DNA of 64,000 nt, taken from the IMG/VR virus record IMGVR_UViG_3300032116_000057, positions 1-64,000 of that record; one strand, 5' to 3'. The DNA comes from a virus. The position numbers were made by a program, and so were the translations under genes. Numbering within the stretch: position 1 is the stretch's first letter; every line of letters starts with the position of its first letter. Of the stretch, positions 25,075-58,330 are shown piece after piece. The notes under the pieces were generated by a model. It saw only the letters and a program-made list of their open reading frames with translations, made no database searches and was not told where the DNA came from.

Positions 25075-25185
25075 GAAAAATATGATACTCCCCCGGCTAC
25101 TGCCTGAAATGCTAAGACCCTGGAGTTATCCGGCCACTGCCTTGTGTTTTAGGTCGTAGCAGTTTGTTTTACCTGCCCGAAAGGT

Positions 25186-25213
25186 GGGAAGTTGGGGCGC
25201 TAAGGGTGGGGGG
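25186..25213 (+). other. Canonical G-quadruplex-forming motif at divergence point
   Basis: GGG-aagtt-GGGG-cgctaa-GGG-t-GGGGGG. Confidence 0.45.
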
Positions 25214-25265
25214 TGGCAAATCGATTTCTAAGGGGGTCGGTTCAGCAAACGCCAAAAGTTCAGGT

Positions 25266-25369: not shown

Positions 25370-25876
25370 ATGAAATCTCAAATAGAACTACTTCGCGACA
25401 TGGTTGCTGGCTCTACTACTCTCGTTATTGAGAATGTAGCCTCCGCCTTTACAAGCGAACTCGTTACCCACCCCAACTACCTTCTCCCTGAGAAGCCAAA
25501 CGCTTCCCAGCGTGGTCGTGCGTGGGCGGGTTATTACAACTCATTAGGCGTTAGTGCTGAGTTCCTAAAGACCAACATTACGCTTATCGGTCGTTATTTC
25601 GAGCGCATTGATGTTAGTGACCCAACTACTATCCTTGCTCAACTCGACGCTTTCCGTAAGGAAGACCTCGCTTCTAAGTTATTGAAGCAGAAGCAAAAGG
25701 AAGCCGACGGGTCAGCACTTACCTCCCGTTTGGAGAACTTGTCCGAAGTAATCAAAGAAATCGAGGAAAACCTCATTTCGCCAACTACCACGCAAAAGCA
25801 AGCGTATGCCGAAGCGTTGGATAGATTGACGGCACTACAAGAGTCATTCATGGCGAAAGAGTTAGCAGTAGCGTAA
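25370..25876 (+). CDS. First early gene, hypothetical helical protein
   Basis: AGAAAGGA SD; 168 aa. Confidence 0.75.
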   Translation: MKSQIELLRDMVAGSTTLVIENVASAFTSELVTHPNYLLPEKPNASQRGRAWAGYYNSLGVSAEFLKTNITLIGRYFERIDVSDPTTILAQLDAFRKEDLASKLLKQKQKEADGSALTSRLENLSEVIKEIEENLISPTTTQKQAYAEALDRLTALQESFMAKELAVA

Positions 25877-25880
25877 TAAT

Positions 25881-25896
25881 CGTGATGTAAATCACA
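25881..25896. promoter_or_regulatory. CRP/GlxR-like binding site
   Basis: CGTGA-tgtaaa-TCACA matches (T/C)GTGA-N6-TCACA. Confidence 0.45.
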
Positions 25897-25924
25897 TGGC
25901 AGGGGGAGTCTAGGCTCTCCCTGC

Positions 25925-26076
25925 CCCTATCTATGCTCATAGTTAGCATTTGGCTACTGCTTCTAGCGAACTCTCATCATTGAGAGTAAGAGCAGGTCTA
26001 GAGATTACCGCTTTCGCTATTAGCAGATAGTTCGCCTACTCCGATAGTCGGCGGATAACTATGGGTATAGATAGGG
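25925..26076 (+). ncRNA. Candidate structured ncRNA A (152 nt)
   Basis: 21-bp closing stem 25925-45/26056-76 with two G-U; inner ggcta-ctgct-tagcgaa/ttcgcta-agcag-tagtt and ctctca/tgagag. Confidence 0.7.
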
Positions 26077-26194
26077 AGTGACCTAAACAATGCGAATTGC
26101 CTTTATTGGTAAGAGTAGCCTTGTCGGTCTGCTTTTCTCCCTTCGTATGTAGGCTACCTAAACCTTATCTTGTGTCTTCTGTCTAAGTAGAGAG

Positions 26195-26235
26195 CACGCC
26201 CCCGCCGACCCCTTTCATTTGTCGGTTGGGGCGTG
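26195..26235 (+). ncRNA. GC-rich hairpin with C/U-rich loop
   Basis: cacgcccc-c-gccgac / gtcggt-t-ggggcgtg, loop ccctttcattt. Confidence 0.5.
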
Positions 26236-26246
26236 TATCTCTATAC

Positions 26247-26366
26247 CTTATGGCTTAGAGCATACATAGGAAGAACCCCCTTTCCTGTCGGCTATAACAC
26301 TTGGGTTTACACCTTTCTACCCTTGTTGGAACAACGCCTATTCCTGTGTATGCTCTTGGCTATAAG
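26247..26366 (+). ncRNA. Candidate structured ncRNA B (120 nt)
   Basis: 26-position closing stem (one U-U, three G-U) cttatggct-t-agagcatacataggaa / ttcctgtgtatgctct-t-ggctataag, ending in the next SD. Confidence 0.65.
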
Positions 26367-26379
26367 AAAGGAGGTCGTT

Positions 26380-26589
26380 ATGCCAAAAGGCACGACTAAT
26401 AGCCAACGCAAGAATGGTAAAGCGTTCAAGAAGAACCCTGGACCAGCCCAACCCCCAAAGACTAACTTCACCCATGTAAATGGGCGTAGCCCTGAGGCTC
26501 ATGCTAAGCGTGAGGCTTGGAAAGCCATTGGCGGTAGAGCAGATAGTAATCACATTCCCCATTGGAAGACAGGAGTAGTCAATGCTTGA
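26380..26589 (+). CDS. Small basic early protein
   Basis: AGAAAGGAGG SD then MPKGTTNSQRK.. Confidence 0.75.
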   Translation: MPKGTTNSQRKNGKAFKKNPGPAQPPKTNFTHVNGRSPEAHAKREAWKAIGGRADSNHIPHWKTGVVNA

Positions 26590-26716
26590 GTTTGTTTTAT
26601 TTGGCGGTGCTGTATGTATCGCCTATCTTACAATCCTCAATCTTATTCGCCTTCGTCGGTATAACCGAGAGCGCATTGAGAGAGTTGAACCGGGTCTTTA
26701 TGACCTAACTGACTAA
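26582..26716 (+). CDS. Small single-pass membrane protein
   Basis: Manual ORF MLEFVLFGGAVCIAYLTILNLIRLRRYNR.., AGGAG SD. Confidence 0.65.
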   Translation: MLEFVLFGGAVCIAYLTILNLIRLRRYNRERIERVEPGLYDLTD

Positions 26717-26766
26717 TGTAATGACCAACAAGGTCCCCGCGAAGTTTTTGCTGCGCAATGGGGAAG

Positions 26767-26821
26767 AGCCCCTTCAATTTATAGTTGCTCGACTATAAGT
26801 TGAAGGGGCTTATTTTTTTTT
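26767..26821 (+). terminator. Strong intrinsic terminator ending first early unit
   Basis: 20-bp stem agccccttcaatttatagtt/gactataagttgaaggggct then T9. Confidence 0.85.
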
Positions 26822-26874
26822 GTTTTTCCCCGACTTTCCCCATAAGATGAAGAACTAACAGAAAGGAGAACACA

Positions 26875-27141
26875 ATGGAGGATTCAAATCCTGTCGTATC
26901 TGTTATTAGATGCGGAACCATTTTACAAGGTAAGGGTGTATCTGAAGGAGCGACAGTCTTGTTATTCAAGCCTGTTCAAAACGATCCAATGAACACAATT
27001 ATCTTGTGCCATGCACCTATGTCTACACATCACCCCTATGTTGTATGGACATACAACGAAATTACAGGCTCTTGTTCAACAGGAGATTATTTCGACAACC
27101 AAGTTGAAGCAGCAGAAAGATTTGCTGGGAGGACTTGGTAA
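26875..27141 (+). CDS. Hypothetical early protein
   Basis: AGAAAGGAG SD; PYVVW...GDYF....A...F motif. Confidence 0.7.
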   Translation: MEDSNPVVSVIRCGTILQGKGVSEGATVLLFKPVQNDPMNTIILCHAPMSTHHPYVVWTYNEITGSCSTGDYFDNQVEAAERFAGRTW

Positions 27142-27353
27142 TGAAAACACAACTAGAAATAAAAGCCTCTGTTGAAGGTGAGATTAGCCTTCAGCAGCTG
27201 GCTTTTATACATTCTAAGTTAGAAGCGGAGATACACCGCTTTCTTGTATCAATAATAACAAATAAGCAAATCAAGGGAGAACCATGCTCTGTGACTCATG
27301 TGGTGAGCCAGTTGCCCCAGAAAGATGGGACCTTGGCTACACCTATTGCATGA
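27141..27353 (+). CDS. Hypothetical early protein
   Basis: TAATG coupling, GGAGG SD. Confidence 0.5.
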   Translation: MKTQLEIKASVEGEISLQQLAFIHSKLEAEIHRFLVSIITNKQIKGEPCSVTHVVSQLPQKDGTLATPIA

Positions 27354-27490
27354 AGAAACAATGCTTCAATAATCGCCCATCAGAACTAACCGAACGCATG
27401 TGTTTGATACTAGTTCCTAAACAGGGCTACACAATAGTAAATAAAACAGACCCTTTTGTTTACACAGGGGGTAGGTCAAGTGGAAGATAG
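27284..27490 (+). CDS. DksA/TraR-like C4 zinc-finger protein
   Basis: CDSCGEPVAPERWDLGYTYC....C. Confidence 0.55.
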   Translation: MLCDSCGEPVAPERWDLGYTYCMKKQCFNNRPSELTERMCLILVPKQGYTIVNKTDPFVYTGGRSSGR

Positions 27491-27567
27491 TTGGACAGGG
27501 CATCACAGGCTTTCCTGTGTTGCTCTGTCTGTCTGTGTTTCATAACACAGGCAGAAGAAAGGCAAAC

Positions 27568-28314
27568 ATGGAAGTTGAAAATGAAAACAAACTTCCTACG
27601 TTAGCAGAGGTAGAACGTGAGTTCTTGAATGGTCGTTCGTATGGTTGGTCTCGTAGATCAATTAGTGAATACCATAAAGTTTCTGCAACAAGCGAATGGT
27701 ATAAATACCGAAACTATCTTCTAGAGTATCCCGGAACGTTGAAGGATGAAGATGTTAATTGGTGTATTAAAACTATTGGTTGCGGCAAACGTCATAGATC
27801 AGACACCTTGTTGCTTTATCGTATTGTTCCTTTAGATTACGTAAGAGAAAAGAGTTACAACTTTTCTTGGACTTCTCGTTTTGCGAGAGATGAAGAAAAC
27901 GATTGCTTCTACGAAATAAGTAGAATAGAAGCACGTTTTTTTATTGAAGAAGGAGCGTCTACGTATGACAAGCACTTTGCTGCGTGGCATAGAGACAGCA
28001 TGATGAAAGCCCATGGACTAGTAAAAGAAAGGAAGGTGACAGAAGAAATGTGTCCAAAAGGATGTCGCCCATCGTATTGCTATTGCAAACGTGAATGCGA
28101 CGATAAAAACCTCAAATATGAAATAAATGAGCATAGTATGGAAGTCGAAGTAACGGTCGGGTTCCGCACTATTTCATTGACTCTTGATGAGGCAGCAGAA
28201 TTAGCCTCATTCTTGGCAACAGCCAAAGAAGAAATCAAGAAGAAGAAAATTGCTGCGTTAGAGGCACAGCAAGACGAACTCAAGAAGCAACTTGAATCAG
28301 TAAAAGGTATGTAA
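27568..28314 (+). CDS. Hypothetical early protein
   Basis: AGAAAGG SD before MEVENENK; preceded by two hairpins 27493-27552. Confidence 0.7.
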   Translation: MEVENENKLPTLAEVEREFLNGRSYGWSRRSISEYHKVSATSEWYKYRNYLLEYPGTLKDEDVNWCIKTIGCGKRHRSDTLLLYRIVPLDYVREKSYNFSWTSRFARDEENDCFYEISRIEARFFIEEGASTYDKHFAAWHRDSMMKAHGLVKERKVTEEMCPKGCRPSYCYCKRECDDKNLKYEINEHSMEVEVTVGFRTISLTLDEAAELASFLATAKEEIKKKKIAALEAQQDELKKQLESVKGM

Positions 28315-28403
28315 ATCTTCCGCACACACGAATAGGCTATCCATGAGAGGTAGATGTGTGGTTGGTCTTTTTAGTCGGTTACCTGAGGTAATAACGCGAC
28401 TCG

Positions 28404-28435
28404 TCACCTAAGCATGTGAAGGGATAAACTGCTTA
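28404..28435 (+). ncRNA. Small H-type pseudoknot motif, copy 1
   Basis: tcac-CTAAGCAT-gtga..AAAC-TGCTTA; loop taagca pairs with tgctta. Confidence 0.65.
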
Positions 28436-28459
28436 TCAACTACAAAAGAAAGGACACAA

Positions 28460-28825
28460 ATGCACGAAGGTAGAACAATCATGGATTATCCCGATGTGGA
28501 TAGTTTCTTTGATGATGTTGAACAAAACATGAAAGATAATGCTATTCCTGGGTTCAAGTTTTATCGTCTTTATGACCCATACAACGGCCGAGGTTTTGCG
28601 TTTCACTTTACAACCAAGGCTAAATATGATTATGGTTTTGAAATCATGCTTGGATTTACAGACAGTTTATTCAAGTTAGATTTGGATTTATCAACTCCAT
28701 TTGATGCTCGTTCATGGAATACAAAAGGTAACGAAGAGTCTGACCATTTGTATCCATTGCATCAAATTGGATTCAAAATCGCTGCATTCTTTACGCAGTT
28801 TTCTGTTGCTTTCAACAGACAGTAA
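28460..28825 (+). CDS. Hypothetical early protein
   Basis: AGAAAGGA SD. Confidence 0.7.
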   Translation: MHEGRTIMDYPDVDSFFDDVEQNMKDNAIPGFKFYRLYDPYNGRGFAFHFTTKAKYDYGFEIMLGFTDSLFKLDLDLSTPFDARSWNTKGNEESDHLYPLHQIGFKIAAFFTQFSVAFNRQ

Positions 28826-28975
28826 TTCCGCCTAGTAGATGCATGCATCGAAAGGAAGGGAGTCGTAACCAACGACTATAAATAAGGGGTAAACGGGAAT
28901 GGGAATTGCCCGGCTACCAATAAGTGCGTTACATTCCTATTACAGACAGTAATAGATGTTATTGCATGGGGCGAA
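28826..28975 (+). ncRNA. Candidate multi-stem ncRNA C
   Basis: cgcct/gggcg closure, agtcgt/acgact, ggta-cggg/cccg-tacc, acat-ctattac/gtaatag-atgt. Confidence 0.45.
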
Positions 28976-28979
28976 TGCC

Positions 28980-29013
28980 TGAGTCCTGAGCATGACTCAC
29001 TAAAAACTGCTTA
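28980..29013 (+). ncRNA. Small H-type pseudoknot motif, copy 2
   Basis: tgagtc-CTGAGCAT-gactca..AAAAAC-TGCTTA. Confidence 0.65.
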
Positions 29014-29019
29014 TAGATT

Positions 29020-29288
29020 CTTGGAGACACATTGAATAGGCTGTTGATTATCACCGAGAGCTGAGTATGTATTCGGGAGACTATGTCTGAATACAAAGGG
29101 GGCGAAGAAGCATAAGGGTACGAACTATGGGGTCAGAGGCACCCAGTGGGTCACGTTAGTCCTCCCATAATGAGCGTAGATGCATAGTAAGAGACGCGAC
29201 CGAGACTATGTATGTAATTCTACAACGCAACAGAGGCCACGTTGTGAGTCTCACGATAATACCTTCAGTAATTCAATGTGTTTCCAAG
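29020..29288 (+). ncRNA. Candidate large structured ncRNA D (269 nt)
   Basis: 18-bp closing stem 29020-37/29271-88 (one G-U); internal attatc/gataat, tgtattcgg/ctgaataca, tatggg/cccata, gtaga-tgcatagt/actatgta-tctac, caacg/cgttg; no long ORF. Confidence 0.7.
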
Positions 29289-29295
29289 TTCAAGT

Positions 29296-29430
29296 TGGAT
29301 GGCAGCACGAACACTGCGTGTTCACGATTGTCCATACCCAATAACTGGGCTAGCAGTCTAATCTAGTCCGCCAATGTAGATGTCAAAGTTTACATTGGCA
29401 CGCTCGTGTTATCCATAGTGGGTAGCACGT
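29296..29430 (+). ncRNA. Tandem hairpin array
   Basis: gaacac/gtgttc, gggctag/ctagtcc, gccaatgtag/ttacattggc, cgtgttatcca/tgggtagcacg. Confidence 0.5.
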
Positions 29431-29445
29431 GGCAGAAAGGCACAC

Positions 29446-29739
29446 ATGATACTGAGAAAGAAGAAAGTTCTCAAACTGATTGAAGACATGATGCTTCGTT
29501 CTGAGATAGATGCTCAGGACTTAGACGACATGCACAGTCGTGCCTACCACTCTGGAGTCATTGACGGAATGGGAGACATTCTCTATGCTCTATCACCAAA
29601 TAGAGCAAGAAGGTTCCCCATTTCTATTCATTGGTTCGAAGAAGACGAGCAAGTATCCAAAAAAGAACTTGCCCGCATTCGAGAAGCAGAGAGGGAACGC
29701 ACGTTCGAGTATCTCAATCGTGAGAAAGAGGTAATCTAA
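29446..29739 (+). CDS. Hypothetical early protein
   Basis: AGAAAGG SD. Confidence 0.7.
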   Translation: MILRKKKVLKLIEDMMLRSEIDAQDLDDMHSRAYHSGVIDGMGDILYALSPNRARRFPISIHWFEEDEQVSKKELARIREAERERTFEYLNREKEVI

Positions 29740-30452
29740 TGATTATCAATACCTATCAAGAAGCGGTCGACTGGTTAGCAGGCGGTCGCAAAAAGTGGGA
29801 ACGCCCACTTTACACTCGTGGACTACGGCTTCGCAAAACCCAAGCAAATCCAAAAGACATCGAAGTCTTTTATCCTTGGACTAATCAAGCAGTTGTCGTA
29901 TTCCATCCAGATGACACAATAACAATACAGGCTGGACTTGGACGAACAAGGTGGGGTGGGTATTACAACCCCCTCTATTCTTGGAGTGTTCGAGAAGTAA
30001 TTCGAATGTATTCAGGAATTACTAGTTTGTATCAAAGAAACAATAAGTTTCACATTGTGTTAGCTGATGCAACAAGAAAACCACCAAAGATACAAAAGTG
30101 CAGGCGCTGTCATGGCGCTGGACTTGTCGATGGCTATTGCACTATTCCGTATTGTCATTCGCTGGGCTCTGAAGAGTGCGATAAAACAACTCTCATGCCC
30201 GCTACAATTTCAAAACTGAATGGCGGATGGCACAGACACAAGTGTGTTCATGGTTTAAGTACAAACCATTACACAACAAAAACAGAGAAGTGCTTTGGTT
30301 GTAACGGTTATGGTAAGAAAGACTATGGCAGTCAGTTAGTAACTATGCTATGGGACGGAACACCTTTGCGATTACAACACGGCACTCTTGTTAATAACAA
30401 ACCAAGCGAACTAGAGAAAGCGATAGCAGCATATGTCCCAAACATCAGTTGA
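29739..30452 (+). CDS. Hypothetical protein with DnaJ-like CxxCxGxG zinc-binding repeats
   Basis: CRRCHGAG and CFGCNGYG. Confidence 0.65.
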   Translation: MIINTYQEAVDWLAGGRKKWERPLYTRGLRLRKTQANPKDIEVFYPWTNQAVVVFHPDDTITIQAGLGRTRWGGYYNPLYSWSVREVIRMYSGITSLYQRNNKFHIVLADATRKPPKIQKCRRCHGAGLVDGYCTIPYCHSLGSEECDKTTLMPATISKLNGGWHRHKCVHGLSTNHYTTKTEKCFGCNGYGKKDYGSQLVTMLWDGTPLRLQHGTLVNNKPSELEKAIAAYVPNIS

Positions 30453-30996
30453 GTTTGATCCGATAACTTCTGGAGTTCAAATCTATGAATTACCTTTGAA
30501 CAATCCAGAAACATCATCAGCTCAAGAACTTGTAACGGAATGCACTAACATCATTGTCTACAGCAATACTATGCCTAAAGGTTTTGTAGCATTGTCTGAA
30601 GCAAGCAAGTCATTTCGTGAAGCAGTAACAGCAGAAATCATTACAGAAGTATTGGAGTCAGTAAATAATGGCAACGATACCGCTATTGATGATTTGTTTT
30701 ACACTTTTGCCGCATGGTTAAGAAGCACACCAGATGGAAGCAGCACGCTCAAAACTCTTACAGAGTATGCAGCGTCAATTGCTTTTGCTTTGGAACGCAA
30801 AGACTTTGCAGTAAAAGTAATCAAACGCTCTAAACCAGCGGAAGTAGGCGCAACCATTTGGACTATTGTTGATGCGATAAAGAAAGGCATGCCTGGAGTT
30901 ATCTATCAACAATTAGTTTTAAACAACAAATTGGTAGCAATGCACACGCTGAATGCAGCAAAAGAAAATGGACAACTCAGTCTATTTCTAAAGTAG
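30433..30996 (+). CDS. Hypothetical helical protein
   Basis: Operon ORF. Confidence 0.6.
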   Translation: MSQTSVEFDPITSGVQIYELPLNNPETSSAQELVTECTNIIVYSNTMPKGFVALSEASKSFREAVTAEIITEVLESVNNGNDTAIDDLFYTFAAWLRSTPDGSSTLKTLTEYAASIAFALERKDFAVKVIKRSKPAEVGATIWTIVDAIKKGMPGVIYQQLVLNNKLVAMHTLNAAKENGQLSLFLK

Positions 30997-31008
30997 AAAG
31001 GTAGAACC

Positions 31009-31305
31009 ATGTCATACTTTGATAAGTTCAACATGGACGACTTCATCAATAACAATAAAGATGAAGGAAATTGTGAACACGATGACTGCAGTTCATTGGT
31101 GGACACAGCCAGAATAGTAATGTCTCATTTACGAGATAATTACGGCGATAGAGAGCACAAGGAAATGATTCCCGCCTGTGTTATCTGCGTTACGTTCCAC
31201 ATTGCCAACATGATGGGTATAACGATAGCCCTTCGTCACCCAGAAGAGTTGCCCCTTGAACTGAGACGATCAGTTCTTGCGGAAGAATTCCCCGACCCAT
31301 TCTAA
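31009..31305 (+). CDS. Hypothetical protein
   Basis: AGAAAGG SD; CEHDDC..CVIC. Confidence 0.65.
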   Translation: MSYFDKFNMDDFINNNKDEGNCEHDDCSSLVDTARIVMSHLRDNYGDREHKEMIPACVICVTFHIANMMGITIALRHPEELPLELRRSVLAEEFPDPF

Positions 31306-31314
31306 ATAGGGTTA

Positions 31315-31560
31315 TGTATGACGAGAAGCACTCGAGGTTACTGAGACCCTTGCCCCAACAGCTAAAATCAACCTAATCTATAGATGAACGGACCAGAGGT
31401 GAACCCAAGACCTTGTTTCGATACACCACGTGGAACTATCCAAATGACTCCCTAAAGGAGAGTGTGCTAACGAACATGCAGTTGTCTTGTCCAAAAGTCG
31501 CAGAGGTTGTGATGCTAAGTAGCGCTCAAGTCTCCCCCTCCTTCGTGCGTAACTCATACA
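31315..31560 (+). ncRNA. Candidate large structured ncRNA E (246 nt)
   Basis: Nested pairings tgtatga/tcataca, gcac/gtgc, gagg/cctc, gagac/gtctc, caacct/aggttg, ggac-caagac/gtcttg-tcc, actc-cct/agg-gagt. Confidence 0.6.
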
Positions 31561-31596
31561 AAACAACAGGTGGTTAGCATATGCACCCACCTTACA

Positions 31597-31774
31597 CAGG
31601 AGACAGAGGCGAGCGTGGGTTCCCTGATACATGGGGAAATCCGACTAAAATTATCGCAGCCAGTCCTTTCCGCATTGAAGGTTAATGCGAAGGCGCACGG
31701 TTCTTCATCACCGATGAAGCTAAGTTGATAGGCCTATCGGCATGTATTTATACCCCACGCCCTCTGTTCTCTTG
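31597..31774 (+). ncRNA. Candidate rod-like ncRNA F (178 nt)
   Basis: caggaga-cagagg-gcgtggg / cccacgc-cctctg-tctcttg, atacatg/catgtat, ccga/tcgg, cgcatt/aatgcg, cttcatc/gatgaag. Confidence 0.65.
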
Positions 31775-31784
31775 CACATAGATT

Positions 31785-31824
31785 TCCGGCACGGTGCCGG
31801 AGACTGTAAGCAAATTGCTTACAG
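31785..31824. repeat. Two adjacent perfect inverted repeats
   Basis: tccggcac-g-gtgccgga and ctgtaagcaa-a-ttgcttacag. Confidence 0.7.
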
Positions 31825-31856
31825 CAACGAATCCACATACCGAGAAGGGGTAGGAA

Positions 31857-33263
31857 ATGGATATCGCTATATTCACAGAATCCTACGAGCCAATAATGGG
31901 AACGAAACGCCGTCAAGTTCTTGTTACGCCACATGGCGAGCTCGTACGAATCTATACACGGGTCACTGATGGGACTAAGGGTCCTCACAATAAATGGGAG
32001 GAAACTGAATACGACACACTCGTGGGACAGATCGGCACAGCCGAGCAACTTACACGAACTCCAGTCGGCGTATATGTTACGCCTGCTGATGAGCGTGCTA
32101 TGACTGACAAGGGTTATTCCCCTGTCTTGGGCACTAAAGCGTGTCAGGCTCATACCAAAGCAACACTATCTACAGATACTTTGAGTAATATCCTTCCGGA
32201 TATTTACTCACAAGTAAGCGAGCGCGATGATTCACTCGATGACTATGTTCTCGATAATCGTCGTCAAGCTGGCTCTGTAGTTCCGGTGGCAATGGGGGCT
32301 GTGCCAACACAAACAATCGCCACGCCAATCGAATCAACACCTGTGGTAACACCGACACCAGCGTATGTTGCGCTAGCAGTCGTGCCACCAATGGAGTTGG
32401 CTAAAAAGTATGTGCATAGGCAGGTATTTGGCAAAGAAGACTTTGCTATCTACGACTATGCCCGTTCTAACAACATCAACGTGCTTCTATACGGTCCAAC
32501 AGGTCCCGGCAAGACAACATCTGTCGAAGCTTGGGCTGCTGAACGTATGCTCAGACTTGCGTTGGTATCTGGCAATGCATCATTGGAGCCAAGCCAAATG
32601 TTTGGCAAAATGACTCAGATTGATGGCAAGTGGGTTTGGATTGATGGTCCAGTCACCGATGTTATTCGCAACGGTGGTGTGTTGCTCCTCGACGAGGTCA
32701 ACTTCATCAACCCTAAAATCTACACAACTCTATACACATTGTTGGCAGGACAGCGTTCGATATCACTACTAGATCACATGGGTGAAGTAATCAAGGCTCA
32801 TAAAGACTTGACTATCTTTGCAACAATGAATCCAGATTATATCGGCACTACACCGCTCAACTTCGCGTTTCGTAATCGCTTTGATATCCAAATTCCTTGG
32901 GATTACGATGACAAGGTCGAGTCTAAATTGGTTAGTTCCAAGTCTCTGTTGAATCTTGCTAAGCAACTTCGCGTTGAAGCTGCTAAAGGTCAATACGAAA
33001 CCCCAATCTCAACCAATATGTTGATTGAGTTCGTTCAGTTCGTGGGTGACTTGAGTTATGAGTTTGCAGTTGAAAACTTCATCGCTCACTTTTCCCCAGA
33101 AGAAGCAGCGTCAGTTCGCCTTATCTTCCAAACTCACGAACACAACATTAAGACTGACTTCGGTATAGAAGTGCCTGTCACTGTTACACAGCCTGAAGAA
33201 TCGTTAACTCCTGAACAAGAACTTGAACAGTGGGTTAATGGTTTTGTCCCAACTTCTGTTTAG
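31857..33263 (+). CDS. MoxR/CbbQ-type AAA+ ATPase with N-terminal extension
   Basis: GPTGPGKT, LLLDEVN, ATMNPDYIGT..LN.AFRNRF. Confidence 0.9.
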   Translation: MDIAIFTESYEPIMGTKRRQVLVTPHGELVRIYTRVTDGTKGPHNKWEETEYDTLVGQIGTAEQLTRTPVGVYVTPADERAMTDKGYSPVLGTKACQAHTKATLSTDTLSNILPDIYSQVSERDDSLDDYVLDNRRQAGSVVPVAMGAVPTQTIATPIESTPVVTPTPAYVALAVVPPMELAKKYVHRQVFGKEDFAIYDYARSNNINVLLYGPTGPGKTTSVEAWAAERMLRLALVSGNASLEPSQMFGKMTQIDGKWVWIDGPVTDVIRNGGVLLLDEVNFINPKIYTTLYTLLAGQRSISLLDHMGEVIKAHKDLTIFATMNPDYIGTTPLNFAFRNRFDIQIPWDYDDKVESKLVSSKSLLNLAKQLRVEAAKGQYETPISTNMLIEFVQFVGDLSYEFAVENFIAHFSPEEAASVRLIFQTHEHNIKTDFGIEVPVTVTQPEESLTPEQELEQWVNGFVPTSV

Positions 33264-33274
33264 AAAGGATAAAC

Positions 33275-35239
33275 ATGCCATTGATTGATGGACTGAGAGA
33301 TGAAGAAAACTCTTGGTATATCAAGGAGGCTAGGGATGAAGATTTGCAGGAACGTGCACTACAACTAGGAACTCTATGTCGTGTGTATGAACAAGCAGAT
33401 CGTGTTCTAACTGGCGATCCGATTGTTGTGAATGTTGTAAATCAAGGCCCGGCTCCAGCCTGGTCTGACGGTGCAACAATCACATTTAATGCTTCCGAGA
33501 TTCAAGACATGGACTTGGAAACATTGACACAAGTTACCGGCCTCAACTACCATGAGCTTTGTCATCAACTGTATACGCCTCGCAAAGGCACAGAAATGGT
33601 GAAATGGGTTATAGAAAATCAACTTATGGAGAGCATGAATATTCTCGAGGATCAACGAATCGAGACCCTATTTACTGCTCGCTACCCATCTGTTATTCCA
33701 TACCTATCATCTACCTGTGCTCGCTGGCTTTCAGAAGATGAATCAGATGTCTCTGGAACCTATTTGGCGATACGTGGTCGCAGATACTTGCCGGTAGAAG
33801 TTCGAGAAGCATATCGAGATGAGTTTGCTTTTCCAGAACTAATACCTACATTGGCTAGAATCATTGATGAGTATCGGCTGTTAGTATTTCCTCGAGATTA
33901 TGAACGAGCCAAAGAATTGATTCAACAATTCAATGACTATGTTCTACAACCAACAGGAATACTGGACCAAATTAGAGCACAAGTTAGTGCATACAACTAC
34001 AATCCAGAAGATGGTGGATGCACTCTCGGTGGTCCTACAGGCTGTGGGGGTCGTGCTCCCATGGCTAAAGGAAGACCAGAACCTGGCAAAGCACAGGAAC
34101 GTGATGCTGCTCGAGCTAAAGGTCAAGGCGTAGGAGAATCTCCTTACACCTACAAACCAAAAGTAAAAGGAGCCGGTAATCAAAAGCCTAGTGGTAAGCA
34201 AGATAAACCACAAGACGATGATGGAGGTAGTGGTGGTGGAAAAAACATTACAAACCACCGCACTCAAGATGAAGCACTAGATATACGCGAGAGTAATCTA
34301 GATACACCACCAGACATTGGTGTTGGTCATACTCCCAGCGTAGGTGGTGTTCCTAATCACATTGGAAACATGCTAGATGATATTGTCTTTGATACTTTGA
34401 ACAACAAAGATGTTATATCTGACATCAAAGCCAAACAAAAAGTAATTGTTGGTGGCGATGGTAGGTATGAAGATCAAAGTAAACGAGGCAAGTTTGATAG
34501 GACTCAGATTCCTGCAGAAGCAATAGTAAGTTATCGCAAGTTTGCGAAAGAACTACAACGCTTGCGTGATGAATCCGAACCATCATGGATTAGAGAAACT
34601 CCCTCTGGCAAATTAAACTTCAAACGAGTTATGGCTGGGTGTGAACCCGACGTAGCGTTTGATAGATGGGATGAAGGCGATGATGGATGTGACATCGAGG
34701 CTGTTATCTGTGTTGACAGGTCAGGCTCTATGTCATTCCAAAGCAATGATAGAAAGGCATCTATAGCGTGTTGGACTATTAAGCGAGCGTTAGAACACAT
34801 AGGCGCACCAGTTACTGTGTATGCCTTTGATGATCAAAACGAAGTTGCCTACAACAGAGCGGAGAAAGCCGATCGTCTCCAGTATAAGTTTATATACGGT
34901 GACGGCGGAACTAATCCCTATACCGCATTGCTTGAGGCAGAACAATTACTCATGTCCTCACGCAAGAAGAATAAGATGCTGTTCATAATTACTGACGGTG
35001 AGTTTAACCACGACCCTAATGATGATTTGATTGAACGCATCTCTAAGCGAGGTATTCTTACTTCGCTTGTCCTAATCATGGACGCTAAATCATTTGATAA
35101 TCACTACAGCAACAAGGATATGAAGAAGGTAGCCCACAGAACAGAAATCTTTGGTCGTATCTCTCATGCTGGCGAGTTACTATCGTTTGCCAAAGCGGTG
35201 GTAGTTGGTGCTATCAAAAAGCGTTCTCGTAGACGGTAG
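33275..35239 (+). CDS. vWA-domain protein with N-terminal HExxH metallopeptidase-like domain (CobT-like partner)
   Basis: HELCH..NILEDQRIE; MIDAS DRSGSM, GGT, ITDG. Confidence 0.88.
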   Translation: MPLIDGLRDEENSWYIKEARDEDLQERALQLGTLCRVYEQADRVLTGDPIVVNVVNQGPAPAWSDGATITFNASEIQDMDLETLTQVTGLNYHELCHQLYTPRKGTEMVKWVIENQLMESMNILEDQRIETLFTARYPSVIPYLSSTCARWLSEDESDVSGTYLAIRGRRYLPVEVREAYRDEFAFPELIPTLARIIDEYRLLVFPRDYERAKELIQQFNDYVLQPTGILDQIRAQVSAYNYNPEDGGCTLGGPTGCGGRAPMAKGRPEPGKAQERDAARAKGQGVGESPYTYKPKVKGAGNQKPSGKQDKPQDDDGGSGGGKNITNHRTQDEALDIRESNLDTPPDIGVGHTPSVGGVPNHIGNMLDDIVFDTLNNKDVISDIKAKQKVIVGGDGRYEDQSKRGKFDRTQIPAEAIVSYRKFAKELQRLRDESEPSWIRETPSGKLNFKRVMAGCEPDVAFDRWDEGDDGCDIEAVICVDRSGSMSFQSNDRKASIACWTIKRALEHIGAPVTVYAFDDQNEVAYNRAEKADRLQYKFIYGDGGTNPYTALLEAEQLLMSSRKKNKMLFIITDGEFNHDPNDDLIERISKRGILTSLVLIMDAKSFDNHYSNKDMKKVAHRTEIFGRISHAGELLSFAKAVVVGAIKKRSRRR

Positions 35240-35251
35240 AAAGGAGTAACT

Positions 35252-35476
35252 ATGTGCGCAGAAACTATGTGCGTAGTTTGGGATGCTGTGACAGAGACCA
35301 TAATCGGTCCCTTCAATTCACACGATGATGCCCAAATGTTCGTGCTACATGCATCAGACATACTGATTGATGGCAATGTTTCCGAACTAACCATCGAACC
35401 TGTGTCAGACCCACAAGACTGGGCTCTTGACAACGCCTATGACGGTTCGCTATTTTCTACCCAGGAGGCTAACTAA
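35252..35476 (+). CDS. Hypothetical protein
   Basis: AGAAAGGAG SD; IGPFNS..DA motif. Confidence 0.65.
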   Translation: MCAETMCVVWDAVTETIIGPFNSHDDAQMFVLHASDILIDGNVSELTIEPVSDPQDWALDNAYDGSLFSTQEAN

Positions 35477-35637
35477 TGGCTATACCAAAGCAGGAACTAT
35501 ACATGACAGCATACCGGTTCAAAGAACAGGAGGATGCACGTTATGAAGAGGATAAAAAAACAGTTGTTAAACTCTTCATCAAACATAAACAAGAAGACCT
35601 ACTACCAATGTTAGGGTTGGAGGTGAATAATGATTAA
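35476..35637 (+). CDS. Small hypothetical protein
   Basis: Manual ORF MAIPKQEL..DLLPMLGLEVNND; AGGAGG SD. Confidence 0.6.
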   Translation: MAIPKQELYMTAYRFKEQEDARYEEDKKTVVKLFIKHKQEDLLPMLGLEVNND

Positions 35638-35800
35638 CCTTGCAAATATGGAAGAAGTCCAAGCTATTATTAATGATAAGAGTTTAGACTTCGTAGGTGT
35701 AAAGAAAAAGATTGAAACTTTACATCCTGATTACATTGTGTTTAGAACTCCAACAGGAGTATCTGTCCAGCATAAGGATGAGGTGAGTATCGATTGGTAA
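35630..35800 (+). CDS. Small hypothetical protein
   Basis: Manual ORF MINLANMEEV..; GGAGGTG SD. Confidence 0.55.
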   Translation: MINLANMEEVQAIINDKSLDFVGVKKKIETLHPDYIVFRTPTGVSVQHKDEVSIDW

Positions 35801-36252
35801 ACACATTCTTACCTTGGCCTGACATGGAAAGATCAGCTAAGGCTCTAGACAACAAACGATTAGGTAAGCAACGAGTTGAAGCACTGCAGATACTCAGAGC
35901 AAACTTAGGACTAACTAAAGGCTGGAGAAATCATCCGGCTGCGGTTATGTGGCGAGGTCACGAAGGTTATCTATATCTATACACAAATGCTATGTGCATG
36001 GAATGGAGACAACGGGGCTTCGTCGATAATGTTCAAGGTCAGCTTCAAGATATATATGCAAAGTTTGACCTAGAAGGGTGGGAGCCACCGTGGTGGTGGA
36101 ACAACAATGAGTTCCATAAATCTCACCGATCTAATCTCAAACGTAAAGATCCGATTTGGTATCGGTTTCGAGTGCGAGATAACCTGCCGTATAAATGGCC
36201 CAAGCCAGATGGAACTCTGGCAATAACACAAAAGAAGGGAAAAGGTAAATGA
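35794..36252 (+). CDS. Pyrimidine dimer DNA glycosylase / endonuclease V family (MSMEG_6728-like)
   Basis: TFLP..SA..LD..RLGKQRVE.LQI..GWRNHPA..MWRG, SHRSNL.RKDP..Y. Confidence 0.85.
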   Translation: MVNTFLPWPDMERSAKALDNKRLGKQRVEALQILRANLGLTKGWRNHPAAVMWRGHEGYLYLYTNAMCMEWRQRGFVDNVQGQLQDIYAKFDLEGWEPPWWWNNNEFHKSHRSNLKRKDPIWYRFRVRDNLPYKWPKPDGTLAITQKKGKGK

Positions 36253-36286
36253 AACCAATATCAAGAAGAAAAGAAAGAGGAGATTG

Positions 36287-36937
36287 ATGCCTAATTGGTG
36301 CAGTAATACTGTCATCATTCAGGGCGAGCCTGGAGAGGTCCAACAACTTCTAGATTCAGTAGAGGATAGCGGGACCGCATTCAGTCTTGATAAGGTCATA
36401 GCAATGCCAAATGCATTGCGTGGTCAGTCAGCGCCTGAACGTGATGAAGATGCCGCATCTACTAACATGAAACTCTACGGAGCTAAAGACTGGTATGACT
36501 GGTCTAATCTCAATTGGGGGACTAAATGGAATGTAGATGCAAATATTGTCTACGATAACGGCAAGAACAATCCGTTATTAAATCAGAATAGAACTGTTCG
36601 TATTCAGTTTGAATCTGCGTGGGCTCCACCCTTGCCGGTGTATGAAGTGTTGGCTGCAAGGTGGCCCAACACAAACATTTACGTCGCCTATGATGAACCC
36701 GGTTCAGATTTTGCCGGATACGTCATGTATACCAAAGGGCGAGCAGTTAAGGAGGGAAACTTCTCATCTCCAAGTGGCCAAATGAACTATGTAGATCCTC
36801 CAAGTGAGGAGGACGTGTTCACGTGGTTTCCAGATGAAGAAAATTATGAGGAGGTGGGAAGTTATGTAGAAGCGGCCAAAATTCAACACCATGCTATGAA
36901 AGCAAGGCTAGAAGCAATGGCTAGTAAGTTAAGATAA
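36287..36937 (+). CDS. DUF1281 / YubB ferredoxin-like domain protein
   Basis: MPNWCSN..DWYDW...NWGTKW..FESAWAPP..Y.EPG. Confidence 0.85.
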   Translation: MPNWCSNTVIIQGEPGEVQQLLDSVEDSGTAFSLDKVIAMPNALRGQSAPERDEDAASTNMKLYGAKDWYDWSNLNWGTKWNVDANIVYDNGKNNPLLNQNRTVRIQFESAWAPPLPVYEVLAARWPNTNIYVAYDEPGSDFAGYVMYTKGRAVKEGNFSSPSGQMNYVDPPSEEDVFTWFPDEENYEEVGSYVEAAKIQHHAMKARLEAMASKLR

Positions 36938-58029: not shown

Positions 58030-58330
58030 GCCACTGGTCTAAGCTTAAACCCTTGGCGGTATACCGACGCTTAGCTGCATTTCTTTCTCTATGAGACATG
58101 CCGCCAAAAATTCCATGTAGTTCATCATTAATGATAGCTTCCTTTAAACATTCTCTACGTACAGGGCACGGAGGTCTCCCATCTTTGCCCCAGCAAATAG
58201 CCTTAGCTTTGTCTGCTATCTCTTTATATAAAGTTTTGTCTCGTGGCGGAAAAAATATTTCCGTATCTTCTCCTCGGCACTTAGCCTCATATCTCCACGC
58301 CCAAGACACTCTGTCCTGGTATTCGTCCAT
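57965..58330 (-). CDS. whiB: WhiB family Fe-S transcription factor
   Basis: W...AKC...D.EIFFP, AKAIC..CPVRREC, GIFGG.S..ER. Confidence 0.93.
   Translation of the reverse strand: MDEYQDRVSWAWRYEAKCRGEDTEIFFPPRDKTLYKEIADKAKAICWGKDGRPPCPVRRECLKEAIINDELHGIFGGMSHRERNAAKRRYTAKGLSLDQWLDSEDKRGKKGDTKQGAKKLP

Follow-up and report, generated by a model that had tools for sequence, protein, structure and literature searches.

A structured RNA family and putative mRNA elements in the early region of a lake phage

Highly structured RNAs of more than 200 nucleotides (nt) are rare in bacteria and phages, and those of known function are often ribozymes, riboswitch-like sensors or large assemblies. In bacteriophage T7, the RNase III processing hairpins R0.3 to R1.3 are located between the early genes, and the tRNA gene cluster of phage T4 encodes the small stable RNAs species 1 and species 2, which are processed from a longer transcript and whose role is unknown. 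Furthermore, GOLLD and ROOL have been described as large structured non-coding RNAs (ncRNAs) of phages and prophages, of unknown function and not known to have a protein partner (10.1101/2024.12.08.627333), and 10,006 candidate structured RNAs have been derived from intergenic regions of IMG/VR (Fremin et al., 2023; PMC10690425). Here, the early region of the virus record IMGVR_UViG_3300032116_000057 was analysed within the first 64 kb of its 104,454 base pairs (bp), hereafter called the window. This region contains RNA D, a multi-branched structured RNA that is the main subject of this study, next to the modules A, B, C, E and F, the hairpin T1, the hairpin array D2 and the hairpins G. A second RNA family, H, occurs in related phages.

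RNA D is located at 29020-29288 on the plus strand and is closed by an 18-bp helix, P1. Its architecture consists of a long clamp helix, an extension rod, three branch hairpins and conserved purine-rich linkers, altogether 270–295 nt. Relatives were retrieved with the AAA_5 protein encoded downstream of D, which yielded 25 IMG/VR loci and 51 metagenome loci with AAA proteins of 52–93% identity; several of these loci are derived from contigs of about 100 kb. D was detected by nhmmer in 12 loci. The covariance model R1 scored 245.9 bits at D of the window, where the match spans 29007-29298, and 85–332 bits in 23 other loci, so that D is present in a total of 24 related lake-phage loci with 23 distinct sequences. 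Among the matches are diverged members outside the training set (L009 with 127 bits, L073 with 96 bits, L012 and L072 with 85 bits each), and R1 also matched three further IMG/VR contigs. Inspection of the alignment and its flanks revealed that the clamp helix of D comprises about 26–29 bp in the group of L006.

For ten D sequences, RNAalifold predicted a structure with 84 pairs, of which 35 show compensatory changes. In the count of pairs, 94.6% of the cells were paired and 37 pairs were changed on both sides, versus 5–9 in slid controls, and no shuffle equalled this. Using all 23 distinct sequences, 95.1% of the cells were paired and both sides had changed in 63 of the 83 pairs (12–20 in the slid controls). 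Fitting to the model gives this alignment an advantage; nevertheless, an independent alignment with MAFFT led to the same result. The covariation score amounted to 0.448 in comparison to at most 0.079 in the controls, and none of 500 shuffles equalled it. Since G-U pairs are conserved in D as well, one of them being invariant in 23 of 23 sequences and four more being kept in 16–19 of 23, the RNA strand is the plus strand. D is a genuine structured RNA family, maintained by compensatory changes.

Conserved small open reading frames (ORFs), which the preliminary description of this DNA had named as a way to explain the regions without RNA, were not found for D. The longest stop-free runs of the D homologues vary in strand and frame, and their translations are dissimilar and random-looking. 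The combination of compensatory pairs and lack of coding, as generally expected of a structured ncRNA gene, was observed for D only and was not seen for C, E and the conserved core of A. The covariation among homologues, which had been proposed as a check for the whole region, is thus strong in D but absent from this core. A search for extra pseudoknot helices in D returned just weak competitors for one 4-bp helix.

The genes next to D vary between the phages, with at least five unrelated gene families downstream and several upstream, and in 10 of the 24 loci D is followed after 55–66 nt by an intrinsic terminator of the canonical type (T5–T7, -21 to -31 kcal/mol). Therefore, D behaves as a stand-alone RNA gene that is conserved independently of its neighbours. 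In the ten loci with a terminator it is predicted to be the last element of its transcription unit. In all loci D is found inside an operon, on the same strand as the flanking genes.

Several known RNA classes were considered for D and rejected. A group I intron does not fit because no Rfam intron match was obtained and the flanking genes are complete ORFs that differ between the loci. For a retron msr-msd RNA, a match to RVT_1 was found nowhere in the 104-kb genome. A bacterial Y RNA (Yrl) was rejected since the genome lacks a TROVE match for its partner Ro60/Rsr and no Rfam Y RNA matched; the VWA protein encoded at 33275-35239 is CobT-like and paired with the AAA_5 ATPase.

The second RNA family, H, is an element of about 235 nt with a 13-bp closing stem, which was identified upstream of the homologues of gene 29446 in six relatives (among others L006:5587-5889, L018:5612-5898 and L010:5646-5965). 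Its fold covaries, with 14 of 70 predicted pairs showing compensatory changes, as counted in six sequences only. H is present even in distant relatives without D. The covariance model R2, built for H, recognized members that had not been used for training (L008, L004, L037 and L019–L022), gave weak matches in L021 and L026, and identified many H members among the metagenome loci. In the relatives, Rfam at E<=10 returned nothing that overlaps D or H.

In the window, the match to R2 is partial (29351-29467, 19.5 bits) and corresponds to the flanking hairpin K and the gene leader. This site, where relatives carry H, is occupied by the D2 array (29294-29445, plus strand), to which both the leader of gene 29446 and hairpin K (29370-29399) belong. 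For hairpin K, covariation was observed between the sequences of the window, L002, L004 and L017. In L009, L012 and L013, the position of H is filled by a WhiB gene. F was considered as a diverged H as well, and this was rejected since R2 has no match at F.

The early region of some relatives encodes a tRNA-Met (CAT), located at L072:5111-5185, L073:2793-2867, L019:5309-5383 and L024:6873-6947. In L072 and L073 the gene order is D, tRNA-Met and H, so that the early region of some phages forms an RNA-gene island. In the window itself, ARAGORN detected neither a tRNA nor a tmRNA.

Among the proteins encoded in the window are a terminase, a portal protein, a ribonucleotide reductase of class II and a DNA polymerase of family A. 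For its AAA protein, the closest relatives from cultured phages are those of Brevibacterium and Gordonia phages with 45–48% identity; therefore, an actinobacterial host is likely, as had been guessed before. Two WhiB-family genes, one at 58076-58297 of the window and one at G000 67914-68102, both on the minus strand, point to such a host as well. The AAA_5 ATPase and the VWA protein form a CobS/CobT-like pair (31857-35239), and such pairs are common to Gordonia and Brevibacterium phages and to cyanophages.

The early genes form a plus-strand block at 25370-36937, which is flanked by two minus-strand blocks. Ten small proteins encoded in this block were compared with PHROG, and none of them matched a family. 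An intrinsic terminator at 26766-26811 on the plus strand, consisting of a 20-bp stem followed by T9, is the sole convincing one in the early block, of which it closes the first transcription unit. In front of the block, the divergent control region contains a conserved G-rich box at 25175-25235 (TAAGGGTGGGGGGTGGCAAA), and in some relatives it harbors tandem CGGACAA repeats that are iteron-like (L010 around 2190-2300 and L017 around 1420-1520). Furthermore, a short element is present in the leader of gene 28460 (28382-28443), which is 85–88% conserved in L014 and L007 and 79% in L012, and a look-alike of it is located at 28980-29013.

All relatives whose loci were complete upstream of the AAA gene contain 1.3–3.3 kb without ORFs of at least 60 amino acids (aa) within 8 kb upstream of this gene. 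All four intergenic regions of the window are common only to L002 and L003, whose AAA identity is 80%. The blastn comparison of the 7-kb region with 50,697 phage records gave no match.

For the intergenic DNA of the window, the preliminary description had claimed an array of large structured RNAs over about 1.8 kb that fold almost end to end. The amount is right, as the four stretches (25877-26379 with 503 nt, 28315-28459 with 145 nt, 28826-29445 with 620 nt and 31306-31856 with 551 nt) add up to about 1.82 kb. In comparison to shuffled sequences, the first stretch (IG1) reaches a z-score of -9.65 on the plus and -7.23 on the minus strand, the third (IG3) a moderate -5.2 and -3.1, and the fourth (IG4) is barely beyond the shuffles with -2.6 on either strand.

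At the level of single modules, the z-scores on the plus and minus strand are -7.3 and -5.2 for A (25925-26076), -7.2 and -5.6 for T1 (26190-26246), and -5.7 and -3.8 for B (26247-26366). They amount to -4.5 and -0.3 for D2, -4.5 and -3.4 for F (31597-31774), and -5.5 and -5.6 for the hairpins G (31783-31824), to which no strand was assigned. A, T1, B and F are assigned to the plus strand. The six elements listed so far are significant versus shuffles, and the plus strand is favoured in all of them but G. D itself has -3.4 and -4.7. On the contrary, C (28826-28975, plus strand) with -2.4 on either strand and E (31315-31560, plus strand) with -0.5 and -0.8 are not significant on either strand and, like the segment 26077-26189, resemble shuffled sequence, so that folding from end to end was overstated. 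Since 150-nt windows of coding DNA also reach z-scores below -3, energy alone is weak evidence.

The closing stem of A comprises 19 bp, that of B 9+16 bp and that of D in the window 18 bp, which is in line with the nearly perfect RNA duplex of about two turns (~20 bp or more) expected of an RNase III site. The wobbles in these stems are indeed G-U on the plus strand, as noted before, so the plus-strand fold is more stable: -71.0 versus -58.3 kcal/mol for A and -44.9 versus -37.9 kcal/mol for B; for D2 the values are -58.1 and -40.3 kcal/mol. The selection on plus-strand RNA that had been deduced from this holds for D, where covariation and the invariant G-U pair demonstrate it. For A, B, T1, D2 and F such selection is plausible on thermodynamic grounds, and for C and E it is not supported.

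None of the modules matches a known RNA family, in agreement with the preliminary description. Rfam 15 gave no match in the window at gathering score, and at E<=5 just two chance microRNA matches at 27490-27577, outside every module; the families covered comprise riboswitches, ribozymes, GOLLD, ROOL, raiA, 6S and Y RNA as well as introns of group I and group II.

Module A folds into 152 nt, and its orthologue in L002 has a z-score of -8.2 with 43 of 58 pairs in common. Between the window and L002, the stems of A differ less than its loops, with changes at 13 of 115 paired and 13 of 32 unpaired positions. T1 is a G+C-rich stem with a C-rich loop and without a U tract; in L002 it has a z-score of -7.2 and shares 18 of 19 pairs. 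The inner hairpin of T1 and its loop sequence are kept in L002, L004/5, L018, L023, L043, L045, L051 and L057. The 120-nt fold of B lies a few bases upstream of the Shine-Dalgarno sequence of gene 26380, and its counterpart in L002 (z-score -7.4) has 26 of 37 pairs in common. The 178-nt fold of F has a long closing stem, and in L002 (z-score -4.7) only 18 of 62 pairs are common; double changes preserve 12 pairs, and 13 pairs are disrupted.

The hairpins G are two perfect 9-bp palindromes just upstream of the AAA_5 gene with at most one wobble pair. In L002 they show about 87–88% identity, a z-score of -5.1 and 17 of 18 common pairs, and a match of 72.5 bits was obtained in L042. As judged from these palindromes, they could be DNA operators or act in RNA.

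As whole modules, A, B, F, T1, D2 and G are found in one sister lineage only, whereas a broader distribution was observed for T1, G and one of the D2 hairpins. Pattern scans of IMG/VR for B and F returned the L002/L003 sister contigs only, and among the metagenome loci the relatives of B and F are limited to L042, which contains G together with the 3' end of F, and to a duplicate of L003. With a single informative relative, A, B, T1, F and G are plausible rather than proven RNA elements.

Within A, a core of three boxes (25947-26030) is conserved in 18 loci, with constant spacing and without insertions or deletions; some of these loci are distant and do not contain D. Box1 (GGCTACTGC) is followed 41 nt on by CCAGG and about 25 nt further by TTATCAGG, which in the window correspond to 25952-25960, around 25993-25996 and 26018-26026 on the plus strand. 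For this core, RNAalifold on the 18 loci yielded no consensus structure and no covariation, and on a subgroup of 12 sequences a weak, nearly invariant consensus structure.

The box1 motif GGCYACTGCY has seven matches in the genome (25095-25104, 25132-25141, 25952-25961, 7105, 47769, 56852 and G000 68836) versus none for the reversed control. Three of these copies cluster where the early block starts, those at 25095 and 25132 being located in the divergent control region. In relatives, box1 copies are located at a distance of about 20 nt to the start codons of genes that run leftward. Since a consensus structure is lacking and copies of box1 occur elsewhere, the core is treated as a sequence-level element, possibly with the role of a promoter, an operator or a recognition motif in RNA. 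The closing stem of A with its 19 bp is a lineage-specific addition.

As structured RNA modules, C and E are not supported. Compared to L002, C shows 62% identity with 4 of 42 predicted pairs in common, and E shows 48% identity with a z-score of 0.0 for the orthologue. Like B and F, both are confined to the lineage of the window, and they are read as plain spacer.

In most relatives, a gene for an acidic protein of about 80 aa with the motif VLFDLITKWP is located directly upstream of AAA_5 (L010:7680-7925, L006:7683-7925, L013:7649-7903 and others). Neither the window nor L002 contains this gene; E and F are located there instead, and tblastn with the acidic protein of the relatives found nothing in the E/F region. 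E is probably leftover spacer at the site of this gene. A frame of 84 aa at 31378-31632 on the minus strand has the composition of an antisense artefact. Two of six proposed modules are unstructured, and thermodynamic scores alone had over-called the array. Nevertheless, since the wider phage group also carries H and tRNA-Met in addition to D, an RNA-rich early region is real.

Considering all elements, we regard it with moderate confidence as probable that D is a stand-alone RNA gene, that A, B, T1, D2 and F are mRNA elements and that C and E are spacer. Here, D would be transcribed together with the neighbouring plus-strand genes and would be released or kept as a stable RNA, for which its clamp of 18–29 bp represents a plausible substrate of a double-strand-specific RNase. 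We infer further that D acts in trans through protein binding. A, B, T1, D2 and F, in turn, would not be independent trans-acting RNAs, but elements within a polycistronic mRNA that steer its processing and stability in a way similar to the RNase III hairpins of T7. The observation that only one terminator interrupts the block is in line with such elements.

Some points weigh against this interpretation. In the window, D is not followed by a terminator, and its z-score is modest and not strand-specific. An RNA-binding partner of D was not identified, neither Pfam nor PHROG gave a match for the flanking proteins, and a phage-encoded RNase III was not found in the genome. For A, B and F there is one informative relative, and their structures are based on energy and a few compensatory changes.

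The preliminary description had interpreted A to F as six separate trans-acting early ncRNAs, which are possibly excised by RNase III at their closing stems and would serve as decoys, as anti-defence RNAs or as regulators of the host. Long near-perfect closing stems with plus-strand wobbles in A, B and D as well as the very low z-scores of IG1 and IG3 would agree with this, and D is a genuine RNA. We nevertheless consider six such RNAs quite unlikely: C and E are without significant or conserved structure, B, C, E and F occur in one sister lineage only, the deeply conserved core of A does not covary, and the position of B, which abuts the ribosome-binding site, fits an element of the 5' untranslated region.

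For D alone, a cis-acting role is conceivable, in which it would control terminator read-through as a ligand- or protein-sensing attenuator or as a processive antiterminator, comparable to a riboswitch or the put RNA of HK022. Its location within an operon on the strand of the flanking genes and the strong terminator 55–66 nt downstream in ten loci would suit this role. However, no terminator was detected after D in the window and in 13 other loci, and where it is present its stem is clear of the clamp helix, with a separate small hairpin in between. Alternative pairing is limited to the weak competitors for one 4-bp helix, and the size of D is far above that of known antiterminator RNAs. Due to the restricted occurrence of the terminator, its position clear of the clamp and the unrelated downstream genes, a riboswitch or attenuator was rejected, and cis regulation by D in general appears unlikely.

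The long stems could also be meaningful as DNA, namely as inverted repeats of mobile elements, binding sites, promoters or operators, which concerns especially the core of A and the palindromes G. This core is ungapped with fixed spacing and without consensus structure, its box1 recurs in the divergent control region and near leftward gene starts of relatives, with no match for the reversed control, and G folds equally on either strand with hardly any wobble. For D, a role at the DNA level is excluded by the double compensatory changes and conserved G-U pairs; A and B fold 7–13 kcal/mol better on the plus than on the minus strand, and in the early and control region box1 and the full core are always on the strand of the early genes. 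As an explanation of the stems in general we regard it as improbable.

Small conserved proteins overlooked by a simple ORF scan are highly improbable. Short frames do exist, for example the 84-aa frame on the minus strand and one of 54 aa at 29180-29344 on the plus strand, but the stop-free runs of the D homologues differ in strand and frame with unlike translations, the region of the 84-aa frame is only 48% identical in L002, and the search with the acidic protein was negative.

Going beyond the preferred interpretation of D as a stand-alone RNA gene among mRNA elements, D and H might represent a new class of large RNAs that occurs only in this group of freshwater actinophages, be it catalytic, self-assembling or a decoy for the host polymerase or defence proteins. 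Together with tRNA-Met they would then constitute an early RNA-gene island that is exchanged module by module. This is a speculative extension, and we hold it to be rather unlikely.

With D, which has 83 pairs in 270–295 nt, and H of about 235 nt, two families of structured RNAs above 200 nt are now described by covariance models, with clear boundaries and in a defined genomic context, and their carriers are phages of abundant freshwater actinobacteria. The covariance models of D and H gave no match in the AAA-gene regions of the closest cultured actinophages, Brevibacterium phage Cantare and Gordonia phage ScarletRaider, and the core motifs of both RNAs had no exact match in 185,579 prokaryote genomes. 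Neither of the two RNAs is represented in Rfam, while the general phenomenon of structured RNAs in phages is already known (PMC10690425).

With respect to the known systems, the modules A, B, T1, D2 and F resemble the RNase III hairpins of T7 as stable intergenic stem-loops on the mRNA strand of an early operon, some of them directly upstream of a ribosome-binding site. In contrast, the sites of T7 are single hairpins of about 50–60 nt with an internal loop, whereas the stems described here close multi-branched folds of 120–270 nt, belong to a phage with a likely actinobacterial host and are putative cleavage sites.

D and H share with GOLLD and ROOL that they are phage-borne, have a covarying multi-helix fold, are accompanied by a tRNA gene in some relatives and are not known to have a protein partner. 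They differ from them in lacking any Rfam match, even at E<=10. GOLLD and ROOL are also much larger than D and H.

The arrangement of D, tRNA-Met and H in L072 and L073 is reminiscent of species 1 and 2 of T4, which are likewise RNAs beside phage tRNA genes; unlike in T4, the window has no tRNA, and there is no relation in sequence or structure. Finally, D and H are similar to the candidates of Fremin et al., as they originate from the same data source and represent covarying intergenic RNA motifs of uncultured phages.

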